A stretch of 64,000 bases of DNA. It comes from Bacteroidota bacterium (lineage in GTDB: Bacteria > Bacteroidota > Bacteroidia > UKL13-3). The DNA is taken from NCBI GenBank assembly GCA_947492885.1, contig CANLPK010000001.1, positions 36,852 through 100,851 of the forward strand, in the 5' to 3' direction. Of the stretch, positions 5,940-14,268 are shown piece after piece. A model generated the notes under the pieces. The model was not told the origin of the DNA. It searched no databases and worked only from the letters and a program-made list of their open reading frames with translations. Made by a program: the position numbers and the translations under genes. The stretch's first letter is position 1. Every line of letters starts with the position of its first letter.

Positions 5940-6102
5940 CTGAGAATAGCAACGAAGATAGGAAAGAAATATTTTATAGCTATATGGAATTTGGGAATTC
6001 AAATATTAGTTGACGCTCAAATCGAAACATGAAAATATTTCAAGAAAACGTTCCTTTAATAAAAGAACTCATTACCACACTTCCAATTTAAATTAGTAAC
6101 GA

Positions 6103-6735
6103 CTACTGAATCAATATTTTTTTATAGGAATAGGTGCTATTATTTTGAATTAAGGTGGCATAATAGATCCCAATTGGAAGGGCATTCCAATCAAATAAAT
6201 CGTCACTTGAGAATATCGTTTTTTGAAAGACAATTTTGCCTGAAATGTCCGTAAGAATTAAATTAGCATTTGGTATTATGTTGGTTAATTGAAAGGTATT
6301 TGTGTATTGTCGCAGAAGAAAAATAGGGTAGTCTTTTTTTTGCGAATCAATCCCAGTTCTGTAGCCCTTATGTACAATAAGCTTAACAAGTCGGGCTCGA
6401 TATTGATTTGCATTATTTTGGCCTTCAACCCAAAATTGAATAAGGGTATCGGTTAGCATGGCATAGCTGGTGGCGGTGATATTAAAAATCACTGTTTTAG
6501 AAGTGTCGGAATATCCCTTCACTGTAGCTATTGCTGGGAAGTTGGTGGAAGATGCTCCTGGGTTTATTAAGATGGTAGTAGTTTTATCAGGTGAAGTAAG
6601 AACCGCTTCCAAGGAATCAATTCCAAAATACAAATGTTTAACTGTGATGGAATCAATTGGTTTTATAAATGTAATCTGACTTGGAAGTGATAGCGCCAAA
6701 AACAGGCTTGCAATTAAGATAAAGTTTCTATTCAT
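6103..6735 (-). CDS. small secreted protein with a T9SS type-A C-terminal sorting domain
   Basis: Signal peptide MNRNFILIASLFLALSL. C-terminus ...LTDISGKIVFQKTIF...LPIGIYYATLIQNNSTYSYKKILIQ fits the T9SS CTD pattern. Its start lies 1 nt after the upstream gene's stop. Confidence 0.65.
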   Translation of the reverse strand: MNRNFILIASLFLALSLPSQITFIKPIDSITVKHLYFGIDSLEAVLTSPDKTTTILINPGASSTNFPAIATVKGYSDTSKTVIFNITATSYAMLTDTLIQFWVEGQNNANQYRARLVKLIVHKGYRTGIDSQKKDYPIFLLRQYTNTFQLTNIIPNANLILTDISGKIVFQKTIFSSDDLFDWNALPIGIYYATLIQNNSTYSYKKILIQ

Positions 6736-6736
6736 A

Positions 6737-8113
6737 TTATTTTAATAATTTGAAATTATAATTGTATTGTGAATTTGAAATGGATAATAGATAAAATCCG
6801 TGGGCTAGCTGGGAAGTGTTTATTGTATTTTGAAGACGCATTGAAGGGTAATCTGCCAATAATTGCCCAGTTGCGTTATAGAGTCTTACCTCAAAAGCTT
6901 CATTCACATTAGGTAAAACGAGTTTAATTTCATTCTCAAAAGGATTGGGGAACACGGTGACTTCGGGGTGTGTTGAATATTCAATCCCTACAGGGGCTTT
7001 CACAATACAGCCTGTTTGAGAGGGATACGGCGGACCACCATTTGTATAATTAACAATTAGAGGCGTTTTTTGAATTGAACCATTAAATCCACCATCATAT
7101 AAAACACAAGTGCTATCAAAAAATACCGCTTGATTAAATTGATACCCTGGAGCCTGGGTTGTCTTTACCCAAGAGATACCACCATCCGCTGTTTTATAAT
7201 GATAATCATGAAATGTAGTGATAACACCTTCACAATTATTGTAAAAATGAATTCCAGTTATCGCCAGCCAATTATTTTTTGAAAGCGAATCTATAATTAT
7301 ATGGTCTGAAGCAAGTACACTATCGTTTTTGAAGCGAACCAAATAATCATATTGAGAATTTGAATTTATTGGTCCTGTAACACTGATATAACCTTCATTT
7401 TCCTTGGTTTGAGTAACACACAGATTAGAATAACTCCATGGTTTGAATTTAATTGGAACGGGAGTAACGGTCCAAGTTTCACCATTATCGCGCGAATGCA
7501 GCAAATCGAAAGTGGTGGTATCGGTATTGTTTCGAATTGGATAGGGCTTTAACCAATAAATTGAACTTCCTTTATAGCTTAAATAAGGTGGAATATTAAT
7601 ATTTAAAGGGTATTTTTTTAGGAAGTTAGATGGAATTTTTCGATAACTATTCCCTCCATTTTCGAAGATTACAATTTCATCGCTTAAACAAATAGATTTA
7701 TTACGATCAATATTTACAAAAAGTGGCCAAATTTGAGCCGAGTCACTGAATAATTTTACCCAAGATTTACCGCCATCATTCGAGTGATAGAACGTTAGAT
7801 TCTTTCGTTCCCAAGCTATTAGGCTATCCTTATTTATATAGCTAAACATACATGATTGATAATCTGGAATTACATTAGTAATATCATAGGAATTGAGTAT
7901 GGTCCAAGCATTATTTTTAAGTTCAGCCAAAATGAACATTCCTTTTTGCGGGCAATTTTCGCATCTCATAGTTCCATAAAATGTAGGGCATTTATTAGGG
8001 CCATCTAAAAAATAGCTGATATGCGTCGAATCAGTTGAATAAACTAAACTCCAAGTTTGGGATTTACTAAAGAGGGAAAAGGTAAGCAGGGTTAAAACTA
8101 AAAGTGTTTTCAT
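6737..8113 (-). CDS. BNR/Asp-box repeat (sialidase/sortilin-type beta-propeller-like) protein with a T9SS type-A CTD
   Basis: Signal peptide. Three SxDxGxxW Asp-boxes (SNDGGKSW, SRDNGETW, TADGGISW). C-terminal VTVFPNPFENEIKLVL...AHGFYLLSISNSQYNYNFKLLK matches the sorting-domain pattern. Confidence 0.7.
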   Translation of the reverse strand: MKTLLVLTLLTFSLFSKSQTWSLVYSTDSTHISYFLDGPNKCPTFYGTMRCENCPQKGMFILAELKNNAWTILNSYDITNVIPDYQSCMFSYINKDSLIAWERKNLTFYHSNDGGKSWVKLFSDSAQIWPLFVNIDRNKSICLSDEIVIFENGGNSYRKIPSNFLKKYPLNINIPPYLSYKGSSIYWLKPYPIRNNTDTTTFDLLHSRDNGETWTVTPVPIKFKPWSYSNLCVTQTKENEGYISVTGPINSNSQYDYLVRFKNDSVLASDHIIIDSLSKNNWLAITGIHFYNNCEGVITTFHDYHYKTADGGISWVKTTQAPGYQFNQAVFFDSTCVLYDGGFNGSIQKTPLIVNYTNGGPPYPSQTGCIVKAPVGIEYSTHPEVTVFPNPFENEIKLVLPNVNEAFEVRLYNATGQLLADYPSMRLQNTINTSQLAHGFYLLSISNSQYNYNFKLLK

Positions 8114-8115
8114 AT

Positions 8116-10668
8116 TTATCGATAGCTATTATTTACAATCGGGAAAGTAATTCCAGGGCATGACCTTGTAACCCCATAATTTAGAGTTGAGTTATAGACA
8201 TTTGAATTAAATACTTTTCGAATTTGTCTATCACAAAAGTTACTAATATCGGGATCGGTAAATAGGCTTTTCAATCTTACATCACCAAAATCAATAACAT
8301 GGAAATCGGAAATTGATACAGTATATAAATTTTGATATTCAATTAATCGGTCCTTCACAAAATTGCTGCAACATTCTTCAGGCCAACGTGTATTAAAGAA
8401 GTTATTTGTAATTGAGGAAATGTACAAGTTGGTACCTAAATAAAGAGTAGGGCAACCAGGGTCGTTATTGGTTGTATAGAAGCTGGTCAAAAATTCGCCT
8501 ATATATTCATCAAAAATTATATCATAAGCATTATCAAGAAAGGTGTCATTAGTGGCAATTAAAATTCCACCGGCCTTATCACTACTTAATCCAGGATGTC
8601 CAAATGTTCTCTTTCCAAGAAAAACAGCGATATCGGCATTGGAAATTGTTGTATTAATAATTGTAAGCTTTCCTTGAATAGCGTTCGGAGCGCACGAATT
8701 TACATCACCCCATACTTCAATACCTTGCCATCTGCATCCACCTATTCTAGAGTTGACAATTTTTAATTCAGCATAATTATCAACTACAATAATTCCACAC
8801 CTTTTCATTTGAATATTACAATTAGAAATAGTCAGTCGTAAACCTGGTGGAACTTTTATTGGAACACCAATAATAATATTAGTATTGTCTTTGAAATAAT
8901 TAGTATCTGCCGCAGTGAGGACATAATAAAATTGATGGAACATATCCTCAGTTTGTGCTCTGTTTTCAAATGGGGAATTGGCAACCAAATTGCTACAAGC
9001 ACTGATATCAAATTGAATGTAAACTGAATCAATTGTTGAACAATTACCTCCAGGCGGAAAAGCTATCATTTTATACCAGCCTTGTTGAGCTGGAACAATG
9101 TTAAAAATACTATTCGGATTATTTTGTTGCATCACACTCCCATTAGGTAATATTAATTGATATAGATAACCGGGAAGCTTTATTTTACAATCTAAACTTA
9201 ACAAATCTCCACTTGCAATGCAGCGAGTTAATATTAAAATTATATGATCATAATTATTTTGAACTTGTACATTTACTGTATCGGTATAGGAACAGAATGG
9301 TGCAGTGGTTGAAATAATACGTATAACATAACTGGCGTTTTCGGTAATAGTCTGTAATAAGGTTCTACTGTTTCCAATAATGGTATTATTACCTGTCTTA
9401 CGCCATTCATAGGTATAGTTGCCGTTGTTACCTAAGTTATTCTTATCACCATCTAACAATACCTGCTTAGAACAAGGAGAAGTTATATCAGATTGAGCAA
9501 AATTAGAAATCGGATTTGCATTTGATACAGAAACAAAAATACTATCAATAAGACTACAACCGGAACTTGGATATATTTTACATTTATACCAACCACTTCC
9601 AGGGTTATGAAAAATAGCTTGATTATTATATGAATAATTTTGCTGACTACCTGAAGGGGTTGTCCATGAATAAATCATTTGACCTGGAATTGTAGACCCA
9701 AGAATCAAGTCATTGCCACAAGTTGATGATTGAATAATTTGCAACATAGAAGTACCTTGAGGGCCAGGTATTATCTCTATTGTGTCAGTTCCTATACATA
9801 ATGGTGAATTCTGAGAAGGTAGGGTAACTCCGTTTACATAGAGTTGCCTATTAACAATTAATTTTGTATAGACTGATGTTGTATAATTAAATGATAAAGA
9901 ACTTCCTATTAAATTGCCATTTAAATCATAAATGCTATACTGTGGATTATAAAAATTATATGTTGGCATTTGCTTATCAACTAAGTTTATAGTGGAAGAT
10001 ATACCACAAGTTATTGTTATTTGTTTGTTTTGAACAAAATTGAAGTTCGGAATAACTTCAACATTATCAAAATAGAAACCAGATTGACTTGAACCACATA
10101 ATGGATTTGTACTGAAAGGAAAAATCCATAACTTACCTGAACTCATTCCCATTTTCCCGGGATTAAATTTTATTGAGGTACCATATGAATTCCAATTTGT
10201 ATTATTTGTTTTAGTGATTTTCATAATTTCCATTCCATCATTTGGGTTCATTGTTAATATTGCGGGATTAGTTAATAATCTAACTGCATCATAATCTATG
10301 GTAACCCCAGGAGGAAGAAGGTGTTTAATTTTCAACCCAATTAAATAGCAACCTTCGGAGAAAGAAAATGAATCACTAGCAACACTTTCAAAATAACCAA
10401 CACTATTAAAAGCCCAAACAAATCCTGAAGTTGGCAGCGATACATTATTCGGGTCCAAATCAGGGGTCGCGTTATATTCCCAATGATCAACAAACCCGAG
10501 AGAAAATGCATTGCCCATCACCATTCCATTTAAATACCAATGAGTATTAGGAGTTATTTCTGGATTCTTTATAAGATTGGCGGGACTTTGGGCAATAAGG
10601 CACAGAGAATTTAACTGCAAGAATAAATACAGAATGAAAAATGATTTTGAAGTTTTGTTTGAATTCAT
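8116..10668 (-). CDS. large Cys-rich exported protein (jelly-roll-like N-terminus, Ig-like repeats, beta-helix-like C-terminal part), no recognisable T9SS CTD
   Basis: 850 aa with a signal peptide (FFILYLFLQLNSLCLIAQS). Internal repeats are visible by eye (IYSWTTPSGSQQNY...GWYKCKIYPSSGCSLIDSIFVSV versus YLYQLILPNGSVMQQ...GWYKMIAFPPGGNCSTIDSVYIQF). A beta-helix-like stretch follows (NCNIQMKRCGIIVVDNYAELKIVNSRIGGC). It is the first gene of a 3-gene block with 1-2 nt gaps. Confidence 0.6.
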   Translation of the reverse strand: MNSNKTSKSFFILYLFLQLNSLCLIAQSPANLIKNPEITPNTHWYLNGMVMGNAFSLGFVDHWEYNATPDLDPNNVSLPTSGFVWAFNSVGYFESVASDSFSFSEGCYLIGLKIKHLLPPGVTIDYDAVRLLTNPAILTMNPNDGMEIMKITKTNNTNWNSYGTSIKFNPGKMGMSSGKLWIFPFSTNPLCGSSQSGFYFDNVEVIPNFNFVQNKQITITCGISSTINLVDKQMPTYNFYNPQYSIYDLNGNLIGSSLSFNYTTSVYTKLIVNRQLYVNGVTLPSQNSPLCIGTDTIEIIPGPQGTSMLQIIQSSTCGNDLILGSTIPGQMIYSWTTPSGSQQNYSYNNQAIFHNPGSGWYKCKIYPSSGCSLIDSIFVSVSNANPISNFAQSDITSPCSKQVLLDGDKNNLGNNGNYTYEWRKTGNNTIIGNSRTLLQTITENASYVIRIISTTAPFCSYTDTVNVQVQNNYDHIILILTRCIASGDLLSLDCKIKLPGYLYQLILPNGSVMQQNNPNSIFNIVPAQQGWYKMIAFPPGGNCSTIDSVYIQFDISACSNLVANSPFENRAQTEDMFHQFYYVLTAADTNYFKDNTNIIIGVPIKVPPGLRLTISNCNIQMKRCGIIVVDNYAELKIVNSRIGGCRWQGIEVWGDVNSCAPNAIQGKLTIINTTISNADIAVFLGKRTFGHPGLSSDKAGGILIATNDTFLDNAYDIIFDEYIGEFLTSFYTTNNDPGCPTLYLGTNLYISSITNNFFNTRWPEECCSNFVKDRLIEYQNLYTVSISDFHVIDFGDVRLKSLFTDPDISNFCDRQIRKVFNSNVYNSTLNYGVTRSCPGITFPIVNNSYR

Positions 10669-11061
10669 AAGAATAGAATTTTAAAATAAGAATTTTAGTT
10701 ATTCAAATCTATGGATTAATTGTTAGAATAAGATAAATTTTTTATAGTATCAGAATAGCTATGGTTTAAATACCCTTAAGGATCTTTCCAACATATATTT
10801 AGTGGGATGCATCTATTCAAGCAAATTTTAATCTTAGAATGTAGAAAAAACTAGATTTATACTATTTAATTATTTAAATGTATGAAAGAATTCAGTATTT
10901 GAGATCGATTATAGATAAGGTCTATGGATTAGTTGTGAAATGTTTATAGTGTTTTTAATATAAGCTTTGAAAAGTCATTTCAAAAAGCCAATTTGCTAAA
11001 AGTTCCAGAATAGAAATTCAGTGAAAAATTCAACGAATTATTAAGAAAGGTGATTTTGTTT

Positions 11062-11139
11062 TGTTCCGTAGGAACTTATCGTGGGTAGCCAAAATATGAT
11101 TCCCCTTCTGAATTGTTCCGTAGGAACCAATCGTGTTGA
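11062..11139 (-). repeat. two REP-like head+hairpin modules, inverted relative to the array at 11675-12146
   Basis: The first is GTTCCGTAGGAAC+TTATCGTGGGTAG (11062-11087). The second is GTTCCGTAGGAAC+CAATCGTGTTGAT (11114-11139). Their reverse complements (CTACCCACGATAA-GTTCCTACGGAAC and ATCAACACGATTG-GTTCCTACGGAAC) match the modules downstream of the HUH gene. Confidence 0.8.
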
Positions 11140-11209
11140 TTTTAATCGTGAAATTAATTTTGAACTTATTGAAGCAATTAATATAATTGTAGAATAATAA
11201 AATAAACTT

Positions 11210-11671
11210 ATGCCTAATAACTACTCCCAAGTTCATCTACAATTGGTCTTCGCTGTTAAATATCGTGAAGCTGTCATCCATAAAAGTTGGAAAGAAAATT
11301 TACATAAATTCATTACTCGAAATATAGAAACGAATAAACACAAATTGCTTCAAATAAATTCAATGCCTGATCATGTCCATATATTGATTGGTATGAGACC
11401 TCATCAATCAATTTCGAACCTTGTGCAGGATATAAAAGTAGAGAGCAGTAAATGGATTAAAGAACAGAAATTTTGCATTTTCCCATTCTCTTGGCAGGAG
11501 GGATATGGGGTATTCTCTTATTCAAAAAGTCACGTGAATGCAGTAATTCGATATATACAAAATCAAGAAATCCATCACGAAAAAATTAATTTTATAGATG
11601 AGTATCGAAAATTGTTAACTGTGTTTGAGATCAAATGGGAAGAACCTTATATCTTCAAACCATTGGAATAA
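11210..11671 (+). CDS. stand-alone HUH/Y1 transposase homolog (IS200/IS605 TnpA-like, REP-associated tyrosine transposase type)
   Basis: 153 aa. HUH motif in PDHVHILIG and a conserved Tyr helix in VIRYIQNQEIHH. There is no tnpB-like partner, and the gene is flanked by inverted copies of a short hairpin repeat. Confidence 0.8.
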   Translation: MPNNYSQVHLQLVFAVKYREAVIHKSWKENLHKFITRNIETNKHKLLQINSMPDHVHILIGMRPHQSISNLVQDIKVESSKWIKEQKFCIFPFSWQEGYGVFSYSKSHVNAVIRYIQNQEIHHEKINFIDEYRKLLTVFEIKWEEPYIFKPLE

Positions 11672-11674
11672 TGC

Positions 11675-12146
11675 AATATCTACACGACTGGTTCCTACGG
11701 AACAGGAAGACGGGGGGCGTGTCATATTTTCTACCCACGATAAGCCCCTACAGGGCGAGAATACAAGTCAAAATTTGTTTTCATTGTTATTTATTGTAAT
11801 CAATTTCTACACGATTGATTCCTACAGAACAGGAGAGACGGGTGATGTGCGTTTTTCTACCCACGATAAGCCCTTACAGGGCAAGAATACAAGAGTAAGT
11901 TTGTTTTCATTGTTATTAACTGAAATCAATATCTACACGACTGGTTCCTACGGAACAGGAAGACGGGGGCGTGTCATATTTTCTACCCACGATAAGCCCC
12001 TACAGGGCGAGAATACAAGCGTAAATTTATTTTCTTAGTTATTAATTGAAATCAATATCTACACGATTGGTTCCTACAGAACAGGAGAGACGGGTGATGT
12101 ACGCTTTTCTACCCACGATAAGCCTCTACAGGGTCAAGAATACAAG
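11675..12146 (+). repeat. tandem array of four ~126-bp units (A-B-A-B), each carrying two REP-like head+hairpin modules
   Basis: Conserved cores of the units lie at 11675-11767, 11802-11893, 11928-12019 and 12054-12146. Each holds tctacacga(c/t)tgGTTCCtac(g/a)GAACagga and tctacccacgataaGCCCctacaGGGCgaga. The AT-rich linkers are also conserved. The super-period is 252-253 bp. Confidence 0.9.
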
Positions 12147-12147
12147 A

Positions 12148-14169
12148 CTATTTTGTCTCCAGCATTTTTTGCATTGCAAACATCTCATCACGAAGCTTTG
12201 CAGCAAGCATAAAATCGGTTTCTTTGGCTGCTTTTTGCATGGCTTTCTGTGTATCAGCAATCATTTTTTCGAGCTGTGGTTTGCTTAATATTTTCATCAC
12301 CGGATCGGCAGCCAAATCAGGGGATATAGGTTCTAAATAGAATTTACTTCCACCATCTTTGCTATCGGCCACTTTTGTTTGACGCATGATTTCATCAATA
12401 CTCTTACGAACGGTTTGTGGTGTGATACCATGTTCGGTATTGTATGCAATTTGCTTTTCGCGTCGACGGTTGGTTTCTTCAATGGTTTTTCGCATGCTCT
12501 CGGTGATGCGGTCGGCATACATGATTACCTTCCCTTGATCATTACGGGCTGCACGTCCTATGGTTTGCACCAACGAAGTGGTGCTTCGTAAAAATCCTTC
12601 CTTATCGGCATCCATAATGGCTACCAAACTCACCTCAGGCAAGTCCAAACCTTCTCTTAATAAATTCACCCCAATCAATACATCATATACTCCCAAACGC
12701 AAGTCACGCAATATTTCTACGCGATCGAGGGTCTTCACTTCACTATGAATATAAGCACATTTGATATTCAAACGAAGCATGTATTTGCTTAGCTCCTCCG
12801 CCATACGCTTGGTGAGGGTCGTTACCAATACACGATCTCCCATTTTCACGCGCTCATCAATTTCATCGAGGAGGTTATCTACCTGGTTGATGCTTGGTCG
12901 AACTTCAATCACAGGATCTAATAAACCAGTAGGACGAATGAGTTGTTCTACAATCAATCCTTCTGCTTCATTCAATTCGTAATCGGCTGGGGTGGCGCTT
13001 ACATAAATTGTTTGTTTTGTAATCTCACCAAATTCTTCAAATTTCAAGGGGCGATTATCCATCGCGGCGGGGAGTCGGAAACCGTTTTCCACCAAGGCTT
13101 GTTTGCGACTTCTATCACCACCAAACATGGCTTTTATTTGAGGCATCGATACATGACTTTCATCCACCACAAGCAGGAAATCATCTGCGAAATAATCGAG
13201 CAAACAGAAAGGGCGATCACCCGCTTTTCGTTTGTCCATATATCTCGAATAGTTCTCAATGCCGCTGCAGTAGCCCAATTCACGCATCATCTCCAAATCG
13301 AACGTAACACGATCTTCGAGGCGGCGTGCTTCAACAGTAAGGCCCACATTGCGGAAATATTCGCATTGCTTCACCATATCATCTTGTATTTCGTGAATGG
13401 CTTGTTGCAATGAATCTTTTGAACTCACATATAAATTGGCAGGGTAGATGGCTACCATATCGGTCTTTTCCAAACGCTGTCCGGTAAGCGGATCAAACAT
13501 TTCGAGTGCTTCAATTTCATCGTCGAAGAAATGAATGCGATAGGCATAATCCGCATAAGCGAGATATACATCCACGGTATCGCCTTTCACACGGAAATTA
13601 CCTCGATTAAAATCAGCGGTGGTGCGACTGTAAAGTCCATCCACCAATTGATACAAAAGTGTTTGTCGGCTAATGCGTTGTCCGAGTTTTAGATGAATGA
13701 TACTTCCCTTGATATCCATTGGATTTCCGGCACCATAGATGCATGATACCGAAGCCACCACGATAATATCTCTGCGTCCACTCAATAAGGAAGAAGTTGT
13801 TTTCAAACGAAACTTTTCTATCTCTTCATTAATCTGCAAATCCTTTTCAATATAAGTTCCGGTAGAAGCAATAAATGCTTCTGGCTGATAGTAGTCGTAA
13901 TAGCTCACAAAATATTCTACTGCATTATCAGGAAAGAATTGCTTGAACTCCCCATAGAGCTGGGCAACGAGGGTTTTATTATGGCTTAGAATAAGGGTAG
14001 GGCGGTTTACTTGTGCAATCACATTGGCCACAGTAAAAGTTTTACCACTCCCCGTAACACCGAGCAATACCTGCGCTTTCTCACCTCGATTCAAGCCACC
14101 CACCAACTGTACTATAGCAGCTGGCTGATCGCCAGTAGGTTGAAAGTCGGATGTAAGTTTGAAGTCCAT
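12148..14169 (-). CDS. uvrB: excinuclease ABC subunit B
   Basis: Walker A GVTGSGKTF, helicase motifs, and the C-terminal UVR domain (LEKMIADTQKAMQKAAKETDFMLAAKLRDE). The start was trimmed from a TTG to the ATG at 14167-14169 (MDFKLTSDFQPTGDQP). Confidence 0.95.
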   Translation of the reverse strand: MDFKLTSDFQPTGDQPAAIVQLVGGLNRGEKAQVLLGVTGSGKTFTVANVIAQVNRPTLILSHNKTLVAQLYGEFKQFFPDNAVEYFVSYYDYYQPEAFIASTGTYIEKDLQINEEIEKFRLKTTSSLLSGRRDIIVVASVSCIYGAGNPMDIKGSIIHLKLGQRISRQTLLYQLVDGLYSRTTADFNRGNFRVKGDTVDVYLAYADYAYRIHFFDDEIEALEMFDPLTGQRLEKTDMVAIYPANLYVSSKDSLQQAIHEIQDDMVKQCEYFRNVGLTVEARRLEDRVTFDLEMMRELGYCSGIENYSRYMDKRKAGDRPFCLLDYFADDFLLVVDESHVSMPQIKAMFGGDRSRKQALVENGFRLPAAMDNRPLKFEEFGEITKQTIYVSATPADYELNEAEGLIVEQLIRPTGLLDPVIEVRPSINQVDNLLDEIDERVKMGDRVLVTTLTKRMAEELSKYMLRLNIKCAYIHSEVKTLDRVEILRDLRLGVYDVLIGVNLLREGLDLPEVSLVAIMDADKEGFLRSTTSLVQTIGRAARNDQGKVIMYADRITESMRKTIEETNRRREKQIAYNTEHGITPQTVRKSIDEIMRQTKVADSKDGGSKFYLEPISPDLAADPVMKILSKPQLEKMIADTQKAMQKAAKETDFMLAAKLRDEMFAMQKMLETK

Positions 14170-14268
14170 AATTGAGGATTGCAAAGGTAGTCAATGCCAA
14201 AGGAAAAACGAGGAGGGAGCTAAGTATTGGATGAAACAAACATTGGAACTAGGTTTCGTTAATTGTTT

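Follow-up and report, generated by a model that had tools for sequence, protein, structure and literature searches.

What kind of genetic element is a lone Y1/HUH transposase gene that stands between oppositely oriented hairpin repeats in a member of the Bacteroidota? The question is raised by the locus at positions 11062-12146 of a 64,000-nucleotide stretch of DNA (the whole of which is called the window hereafter), taken from contig CANLPK010000001.1, positions 36,852 to 100,851, of the Bacteroidota bacterium assembly GCA_947492885.1 (lineage UKL13-3). The initial annotation of this DNA regarded the locus as a gene for a REP-associated tyrosine transposase (RAYT) together with its repetitive extragenic palindromic (REP) sequences, arranged like bacterial interspersed mosaic elements (BIMEs). 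By what route IS200-like transposons gave rise to REP/RAYT systems is still an open question in the field, and both Bertels, Gallie & Rainey (2017, PMC5581495) and Quentin et al. (2018, PMC6006769) single out a group on the IS200 side which behaves like a domesticated gene. As argued below, the locus is probably a low-copy Y1 cassette of TnpA-Y1 subclass 1.2, REPtron-like in its function, belonging to the IS200 side by descent and intermediate between an insertion sequence (IS) and a RAYT/REP system.

The Y1 gene and its classification

The gene is an open reading frame (ORF) at 11210-11671 on the plus strand and encodes a protein of 153 amino acids (aa), whose sole significant Pfam match is Y1_Tnp (E 3e-29). 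The protein carries HVH within PDHVHIL, that is, DHVH at the HUH position, followed by WQ, the tyrosine motif RYIQNQEIHH with Y115 in YIQNQEIHH, and a conserved C-terminal tail. No tnpB gene adjoins it, no second Y1 copy is present in the window, and the gene is single-copy in every assembly carrying it. On these points the initial annotation was correct, and the alternative that it had named, several identical copies of the whole ~1.1-kb unit with target-site features, was not encountered in any of these assemblies.

By its motifs and length the protein is assigned to TnpA-Y1 subclass 1.2, a part of class 1 and hence of the IS200 side, because DHVH, WQ and YIQNQEIHH match the published signature of DH[IV]H, WQ and YIKNQKEHH (Y---Q--HH), which is accompanied by a median length of 148 aa and a conserved C-terminal domain (Quentin et al. 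2018, PMC6006769). A YIxxNP-like Y motif is characteristic of class 2, the RAYT/TnpAREP class (Table 1 of PMC6006769), and is not the motif found here. In addition, the protein passed the NCBIfam IS200 model NF033573 (75.4 bits against a cut-off of 55) and failed the NCBIfam REP_Tyr_transpos (RAYT) model NF047646 (28.1 bits against a cut-off of 80). The matches in the PDB were ISDra2, IS608 and the Sulfolobus TnpA, whether the single sequence or a 23-sequence profile was used, and the Escherichia coli TnpAREP structure 4ER8 was not found by phmmer or by the profile search at E<=10. Judged from its sequence, therefore, the protein is not a canonical member of RAYT/TnpAREP. The initial annotation had placed it with the RAYTs and apart from the tnpB-associated TnpA proteins; of this view the lack of tnpB stands, but the protein falls on the IS200 side, with 28 against 80 bits in the RAYT model, the motif YIQNQEIHH and no detection of 4ER8 by sequence. 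Foldseek with an AlphaFold model of the protein gave IS608 and ISDra2 as the best matches (E about 4e-8), yet 4ER8, at rank 30 (E 1e-5), had the highest query TM-score, 0.62, for a model with a mean predicted local distance difference test (pLDDT) score of only 73.5, and the modelled fold does not discriminate RAYT-like from IS200-like proteins.

Homologues number 2,931 at E<=1e-5 and nearly all of them are 153 aa long, including named ones from Chitinophagaceae, Mucilaginibacter, Ferruginibacter and Bernardetia. Conservation among them is high: the mean column identity is 83%, and the C-terminal pattern HH..F..EY...L..F does not vary, the columns H122, H123, F128, E131, Y132, L136, F139 and F149 being invariant in 23 homologues. 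Many homologues are named "RayT" by the Joint Genome Institute (JGI), a name which is only the label of COG1943.

Subclass 1.2 has been described from Cyanobacteria and Bacteroidetes with 1.7 copies per genome and 36% identity between copies; no IS properties are reported for it, typical IS200 ends are absent, and it is listed as "REP: no", the table of manually identified REPs (Table S1) having no 1.2 entry (PMC6006769). The present gene agrees with this description in its motifs, its length of ~150 aa, its conserved C-terminal domain, its occurrence in Bacteroidetes, its low copy number and its lack of typical IS200 ends. Unlike the published entry, however, it and ~85 relatives are accompanied by regular inverted modules, and in one lineage these modules also have dispersed copies.

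Hairpin modules in the window and in the family

To the right of the gene there are eight modules on the plus strand, each made of a head and a hairpin, with heads beginning at 11680, 11731, 11807, 11857, 11933, 11983, 12059 and 12109, and to the left there are two modules on the minus strand, with hairpins at 11063-11075 and 11115-11127; the oppositely oriented arrangement of two and eight modules that had been described is thus confirmed in coordinates and strands. In the 64-kb window the module motifs are far above chance. The motif TCTACNCACGA has 4 matches against 0.02 expected, GTTCCTACGGAAC with <=2 mismatches has 6 against 0.67 and GCCCCTACAGGGC with <=2 mismatches has 4 against 0.35, the observed count being reached in 0 of 100 shuffles in all three cases, and all of the matches lie within 11062-12146.

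The eight right modules are all present but they are not independent. The right flank, 11674-12147 on the plus strand, is a tandem array with 3.7 copies of a 126-bp two-module unit, each unit containing one R1 and one R2 module (u1, 11674-11799; u2, 11800-11925; u3, 11926-12051; u4, 12052-12147), and a 252-bp super-period in the array matches at 92%. Within the unit the order is R1 module, G-rich spacer, R2 module and AT-rich linker. The R1 module of unit 1 (11680-11703, plus strand) consists of CTACACGActg and GTTCC-tac-GGAAC, that is, an inner-type head with an A hairpin, and further copies on the same strand lie at 11807-11830 (degenerate, with ATTCC..AGAAC at 11818), 11933-11956 and 12059-12082. 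The R2 module of unit 1 (11731-11765, plus strand) consists of CTACCCACGAtaa, GCCC-ctaca-GGGC and a gAGAATACA tail, that is, an outer-type head with a B hairpin of a 4-bp stem and a 5-nt loop before the conserved (G)AATACA tail, and its further plus-strand copies lie at 11857-11891, 11983-12017 and 12109-12143 (the last degenerate, with GCCTC..AGGGT at 12122). On the left there is just one copy of the R1+R2 unit, in inverted orientation (79 nt, 72% complementary). Its outer module (11063-11088, minus strand) shows GTTCC-gta-GGAAC at 11063-11075 and then ttatcgtgggtag, the reverse complement of the head CTACCCACGATAA, and fits the outer consensus of the family, TTCTACC-N8-stem-TAC-stem. Its inner module (11115-11138, minus strand) shows (TG)GTTCC-gta-GGAAC(CA) at 11115-11127 and then caatcgtgttg, the reverse complement of the head CAACACGATTG, and fits the inner consensus CAC(C/G)A-N3-stem. 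The left flank is accordingly an A/A doublet, while the right tandem units are A/B hybrids; in the window the right-hand doublet has undergone amplification to four tandem 126-bp copies. CTAC had been claimed for the head of every module, but the inner left head has CAAC in its place. The window heads CTACCCACGA and CTACACGA are the versions, in this lineage, of the two consensus heads of the family.

These consensus sequences come from a family set of ~85 loci (47-100% identity), made up of 80 metagenomic loci (47-69% protein identity) and several genome loci. In almost every locus with flanking sequence, NNNCC-GTA/GTTA-GGNNN hairpins lie upstream of the gene at about -20 to -110 and NNNCC-TAC/TAAC-GGNNN hairpins lie downstream at about +10 to +80, usually two per side and ~50 nt apart. 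Loop orientation follows the side, with 89 reverse versus 5 forward on the left and 69 forward versus 10 reverse on the right. On the TAC-loop strand, the outer module is TTCTACC, ~8 nt and a 5-6-bp stem of the form NNNCC / loop TAC or TAAC / GGNNN (consensus, tTTCTACCaACat.t-stem-TAC-stem), and the inner module is CAC(C/G)A, ~3 nt and a hairpin of the same kind (consensus, ..CACCAa.C-stem). Arrays of 5-12 modules with a 50-55-nt period are found in many loci of the family, and the layout of two inverted modules, gene, two forward modules and two inverted modules recurs in loci L100 and L105-L113.

Two tests of the pairing were made. In the first, of 166 near-gene sites with CTACC in the expected orientation, 101 have a perfect 5-bp hairpin behind it at an offset of 7-9, as compared with 18 of 488 sites >1.5 kb from a gene, all 18 being chance-like. 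The second is anchored on the core CC-TAC/TAAC-GG; here 252 of 294 near-gene sites have Watson-Crick pairs at all three outer positions, versus 4 of 22 far sites. Among the unique stems, 99 of 127 are fully paired (permutation mean 13, maximum 25), and at each outer stem position two to four types of pair occur. The CTACC-anchored and the core-anchored tests are both non-circular, and they support selection of the hairpins for pairing. Moreover, a stem is common to 88% of the protein pairs at >=75% identity versus 2% of the pairs at <55%, a difference which was reached in 0 of 500 permutations, so that the stems track the protein lineage. The inverted hairpin layout is the rule across this Bacteroidota family, which, together with the dispersed clusters described below, contradicts the published "no REP" for the subclass, and a literature search found no later publication describing these modules.

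Several observations on the modules may be added. In Bernardetia sp., a 50%-identical member (L099, 19790-19975, on the 602-kb replicon NZ_CP147018.1) has the hairpin GTTGC-tct-GCAAC without the CC-TAC-GG core; the TCTAC head is kept, and the modules are all upstream of the gene, in both orientations, with none downstream. In the window, a longer stem formed by the R1 head (ACACG) and a downstream CGTGT was considered and rejected, as unit 1 has it but neither the other units nor the left flank conserve it. A 137-aa ORF at 11625-12038 (plus strand) crosses the tandem array; public annotation calls it a gene (L008, 10416-10829), it has no Pfam match, and most likely it is spurious and produced by the repeats.

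Array length, gene-less clusters and the cassette

When 185,579 species-representative genomes were scanned once with a strict pattern, the motif was found on five contigs of the metagenome-assembled genome (MAG) KTt_bin-2886. One of the five, L003, is the orthologous Y1 locus, with 95.6% DNA identity and 99% protein identity to the window, and it has two tandem units versus four in the window; the number of modules thus changes between close relatives. The other four (L001, L005, L006 and L007) are gene-less intergenic clusters of four modules each in a BIME-like alternating orientation, so that in this sister MAG cognate modules do exist away from the gene, as the initial annotation would require. 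Each cluster combines an A doublet (two GTTCC-tac-GGAAC hairpins) with a B doublet of opposite orientation (two GCCC-ctaca-GGGC hairpins with the AATACA tail); L006 and L007 have the A and B doublets in convergent order, L001 and L005 in divergent order. When 15 doublets were aligned, one architecture was found, namely inner-type head, hairpin, G-rich spacer, outer-type head and hairpin. Between the A and B stems the changes are compensatory (TT/AA to CC/GG), with 19 cells changed on both sides, and this covariation was reached in 0 of 500 shuffles.

As to the unit of inheritance, between cassettes which are 78-82% identical in DNA all similarity ends at -100 to -119 on one side and +72 to +95 on the other, and these limits are the distal feet of the outer hairpins, although 1.5 kb of flank was available on each side. 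The basic cassette is ~0.65 kb long and consists of the gene and a doublet of modules per side, the doublets being mutually inverted. No synteny was found among 276 locus pairs with flanks of up to ±6 kb, eight of the pairs sharing only paralogue-level matches of 27-41% identity. The closest relatives examined (67-71% identity) are in different contexts and none lies beside uvrB. On the other hand, the protein variant P0001 occurs on 8 contigs in the same context wherever the contig is long enough to show neighbours, and P0023 occurs on 24 contigs from many samples, in the same context at all ten places shown. The context is therefore unrelated between lineages and a single fixed locus within a lineage. 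Since the boundaries lie at the outer hairpins, synteny is absent and each variant has one context, the ~0.65-kb cassette of the gene and four modules relocates as a unit over evolutionary time, without multiplying within genomes. No target-site duplication or target motif was seen outside the outer hairpins in 10 canonical loci. On plasmids, the family gave 2 matches in 72,556, and no member was found among the IMG/VR viral contigs.

As for the surroundings of the gene in the window, its right neighbour is uvrB (12148-14184, minus strand), at whose stop codon the tandem array stops, and its left neighbour encodes an 850-aa secreted protein (8116-10668, minus strand). A stretch of 4.9 kb to the left of the Y1 locus (6013-10954), which encodes a 210-aa protein, a 458-aa protein with Por_Secre_tail and the 850-aa protein, is missing in the sister MAG (L003, 6469-6509), and no module remnants are visible at the junctions of this indel.

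Two other features are connected with the clusters. A third module type, (C/T)TACCCACCA-a-ATGTCCC-tawk-GGGACAT-AATACA, is repeated in tandem with a ~107-nt period beside the A/B clusters (L005, 460-930; L007, 5741-5890 and 6357; L004, 1830-1940) and might belong to a second Y1 paralogue in the genome concerned; it does not occur in the window. In another MAG, LJ_bin-3609 (contig CAIYOV010000172.1; L004, 1-1955), an IS110-family element, with a 359-aa ORF matching Pfam DEDD_Tnp_IS110 and Transposase_20, sits exactly in a module loop (gataaGTTCC / IS / TACGGAACag). Its left junction matches the L007 cluster and its right junction the L005 cluster, so that two or more modules hold the IS, unless the contig is a chimera joined through it. 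Targeting of REPs is known for IS110 elements. Another IS110-family transposase gene (L100, 8344-9447) lies 1.9 kb downstream of the Y1 cassette of a 71%-identical relative. Furthermore, two independent metagenome contigs with the exact protein, L010 (1012 bp) and L011 (999 bp), break off within the flanking modules or the array, which suggests that assemblers break at these repeats.

Weighing the explanations and meaning of the locus

The view that the locus is a subclass 1.2 cassette intermediate between an IS and a RAYT/REP system rests on the protein class, the inverted hairpins under selection, the changing arrays and the movement of gene and modules together, which is IS-like and unlike a purely domesticated gene. 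A mechanism may be proposed by analogy with the TnpA of IS608/ISDra2 and the E. coli TnpAREP, for which the biochemistry of hairpin binding and cleavage has been described (PMC8266576). The protein would bind the folded hairpin on single-stranded DNA (ssDNA), on the top strand to the right of the gene and on the bottom strand to the left, and would cleave and rejoin near the conserved CTAC-containing head via a 5'-phosphotyrosine intermediate. Acting mostly in cis, it would cause local gain and loss of modules as the commonest outcome; second in frequency would be the occasional seeding of gene-less, REP/BIME-like clusters of modules elsewhere, and the relocation of the whole cassette would be the rarest.

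A number of points weigh against this view. The cleavage site and the strand are proposed by analogy only, and excision of the IS608 type, which proceeds on a single strand and requires that both ends be on it, does not easily agree with inverted ends. Some loci of the family have no modules on one side, and the co-variation of stems and proteins would follow from simple co-inheritance, too. Folding of the modules and units as ssDNA, which the initial annotation had suggested as a check, places the hairpins in the minimum-free-energy structure, but they are thermodynamically weak (-3 to -4 kcal/mol, z -1.2 to -2, not significant), so that thermodynamics alone is not evidence and covariation is relied on instead. 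The module motifs are not found in the other 63 kb of the window. Dispersal is documented in one lineage, from the one strict pattern scan, and no head-bearing modules were found in 422 kb lying >1.5 kb from the genes of other family members. In the 602-kb replicon of Bernardetia, a BLAST search with the module gave three places, taken as the copies beside the gene, and none beyond. An empty site for the L006 cluster was sought via the neighbouring serine hydrolase, but all three contigs obtained (L016-L018) were occupied; mobility of the clusters is not demonstrated, because only occupied sites were found.

In the same 422 kb, scans for CTACC with a hairpin and for cognate stems gave chance-like matches only, and a core-anchored scan gave isolated hairpins only, namely a convergent pair in L060 and two singles in L074. 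The former, AGCCC-gta-GGGCT ttaacggttaa TGTCC-tac-GGACA, is at about 10010-10050, +6.7 kb from the Y1 gene, and the latter are single hairpins with the CC-TAC-GG core at 238 and 14039; they may be rare dispersed modules. In the DNA covered, the density of modules is far below REP densities; about one cluster per Mb, the figure for the KTt MAG, would still agree with it.

A bolder form of the interpretation goes further than the intermediate position and is put forward tentatively, as somewhat less likely than not. It states that the subclass 1.2 cassettes are a distinct, undescribed Y1 element whose ends are inverted, covarying hairpin doublets with a TTCTACC head, and that they are a living IS200-RAYT/REP intermediate, in which one enzyme is self-limited to one copy, remodels its own arrays and occasionally founds small REP/BIME-like families. 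If this is true, the chemistry of strand transfer must differ from the "peel and paste" of IS608, because the ends are on opposite strands.

Two further systems have to be compared here. The TIRYT/TIRtron systems (Di Nocera et al. 2013, PMC3733652) are similar in that a Y1 gene is flanked by inverted non-REP repeats, which sometimes form small dispersed families. TIRYTs, however, belong mostly to subclass 2.1 and have C-terminal helix-turn-helix (HTH) domains and a GGGGWSAS motif in their terminal inverted repeats (PMC3733652), whereas the present flanks have no GGGGWSAS, the protein has no HTH Pfam match and it is not of subclass 2.1. The "IS200 Group 3" of Bertels, Gallie & Rainey (2017, PMC5581495) has no duplicates and no plasmid members, its flanking 16-mers are repeated and it was called "RAYT-like", with no repeat structure described. 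The lack of duplicates, the absence from plasmids and the repeated flanks fit the behaviour of the present family, the two being compared by description only, and IS200 Group 3 may be this Bacteroidota family.

That the cassette is an ordinary, if atypical, autonomous IS of the IS200/IS605 type, with the clusters being deletion derivatives like miniature inverted-repeat transposable elements (MITEs) or palindrome-associated transposable elements (PATEs) and the arrays being by-products, is unlikely. It shares with IS608, ISDra2 and IS200 the Y1 fold, the catalytic motifs, hairpin-containing ends, a compact unit and the lack of target duplication, which is as expected for IS200/IS605, and the short conserved motif 5' of the hairpin is at a distance comparable to that of the left-end cleavage site of IS608. 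The passing of the IS200 equivalog model (75 against 55 bits), the position of ISDra2 and IS608 TnpA as the best structural and sequence relatives, the sharp boundaries at the outer hairpins, the unrelated contexts in the 276 locus pairs, the resemblance of the divergent clusters L001 and L005 to gene flanks minus the gene and the break of metagenome contigs within the array all speak for it. This explanation fails, however, because of copy number and end polarity. Each protein variant has one locus at most (P0023, 24 contigs and one context), and there are neither identical copies nor a tnpB; for subclass 1.2, the published 1.7 copies per genome are only 36% identical and show no IS properties (PMC6006769). 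The ends are inverted, while those of IS200/IS605 are on one strand. In addition, plasmids carry almost no members of the family and viral contigs none, conservation of the protein is high (83% mean column identity), there are module doublets at each end and local arrays, and the conserved heads are inside the terminal hairpins and not outside.

More improbable still is a bona fide RAYT/REP system, that is, a REPtron with BIMEs, in which a domesticated, vertically inherited TnpAREP spreads a genome-wide family of REPs. The likeness in architecture to REPtrons such as that of E. coli yafM (PDB 4ER8) is considerable: a single-copy Y1 gene stands between hairpin repeats of opposite orientation, clusters contain repeat subtypes that alternate in direction (the A and B subtypes of the sister MAG resembling in this the Y and Z REPs of BIMEs), the hairpin comes with a conserved CTAC/GTAG tetranucleotide, and an IS110-family element is inserted in a module, as IS110-family elements are in REPs. 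The JGI name "RayT" has been counted on the same side, but it is the COG1943 label only. Nevertheless, RAYTs are of class 2 and have YIxxNP, while the present protein, with YIQNQ..HH, is of class 1, does not reach the RAYT hidden Markov model cut-off (28 bits versus 80) and has no sequence match to 4ER8. The modules, which had been compared to classical GTAG REPs, differ from them as well. Classical REPs have GT[AG]G at the foot of the hairpin, which is lacking here, and the head is instead CTAC(C), 8-9 nt 5' of the stem foot, with the opposite polarity (read on the complementary strand, GTAG follows the hairpin on its 3' side) and stems of 4-6 bp. In the DNA covered there are tens of modules at most in contrast to hundreds of REPs, which would put the copy number orders of magnitude lower than in REP families, and the gene shifts its genomic context together with the modules. 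Of the original RAYT/REP (BIME-like) proposal, then, the REPtron-like architecture and the gene-less clusters remain, but the protein is not a RAYT, the modules are not classical REPs and the copy number in the DNA covered is very low.

The last explanation, that the hairpins are RNA or transcription elements, such as structures of the 5'- or 3'-untranslated region (UTR), terminators or stabilisers, which control the expression of the Y1 gene, can draw on the position of the inner hairpins 10-60 nt from the start and stop codons and on the precedent of IS200, which uses an upstream terminator and a 5'-UTR stem-loop, but it is very improbable because the two sides of the gene are reverse complements (GTA versus TAC loops, with inverted heads) and would give different RNAs, and in addition no T-run follows the stems, arrays have up to 12 modules, gene-less clusters occur elsewhere, and an Rfam scan of 10600-12300 at E<=1 gave no match.

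The reading of the locus as a low-copy cassette of subclass 1.2 between IS and RAYT/REP bears on a group that had been singled out for its domesticated behaviour. In this Bacteroidota family there are regular, covarying inverted hairpins, arrays that change in length and at least one lineage with dispersed gene-less clusters. There is also a practical side, since such loci are annotated as "IS200/IS605 family transposase", create spurious ORFs and break metagenome assemblies. For biochemistry, the family supplies defined DNA substrates with two head types and several stem types, and for the evolution of the Y1 transposases it offers a tractable intermediate in the shift from moving self to moving short repeats.

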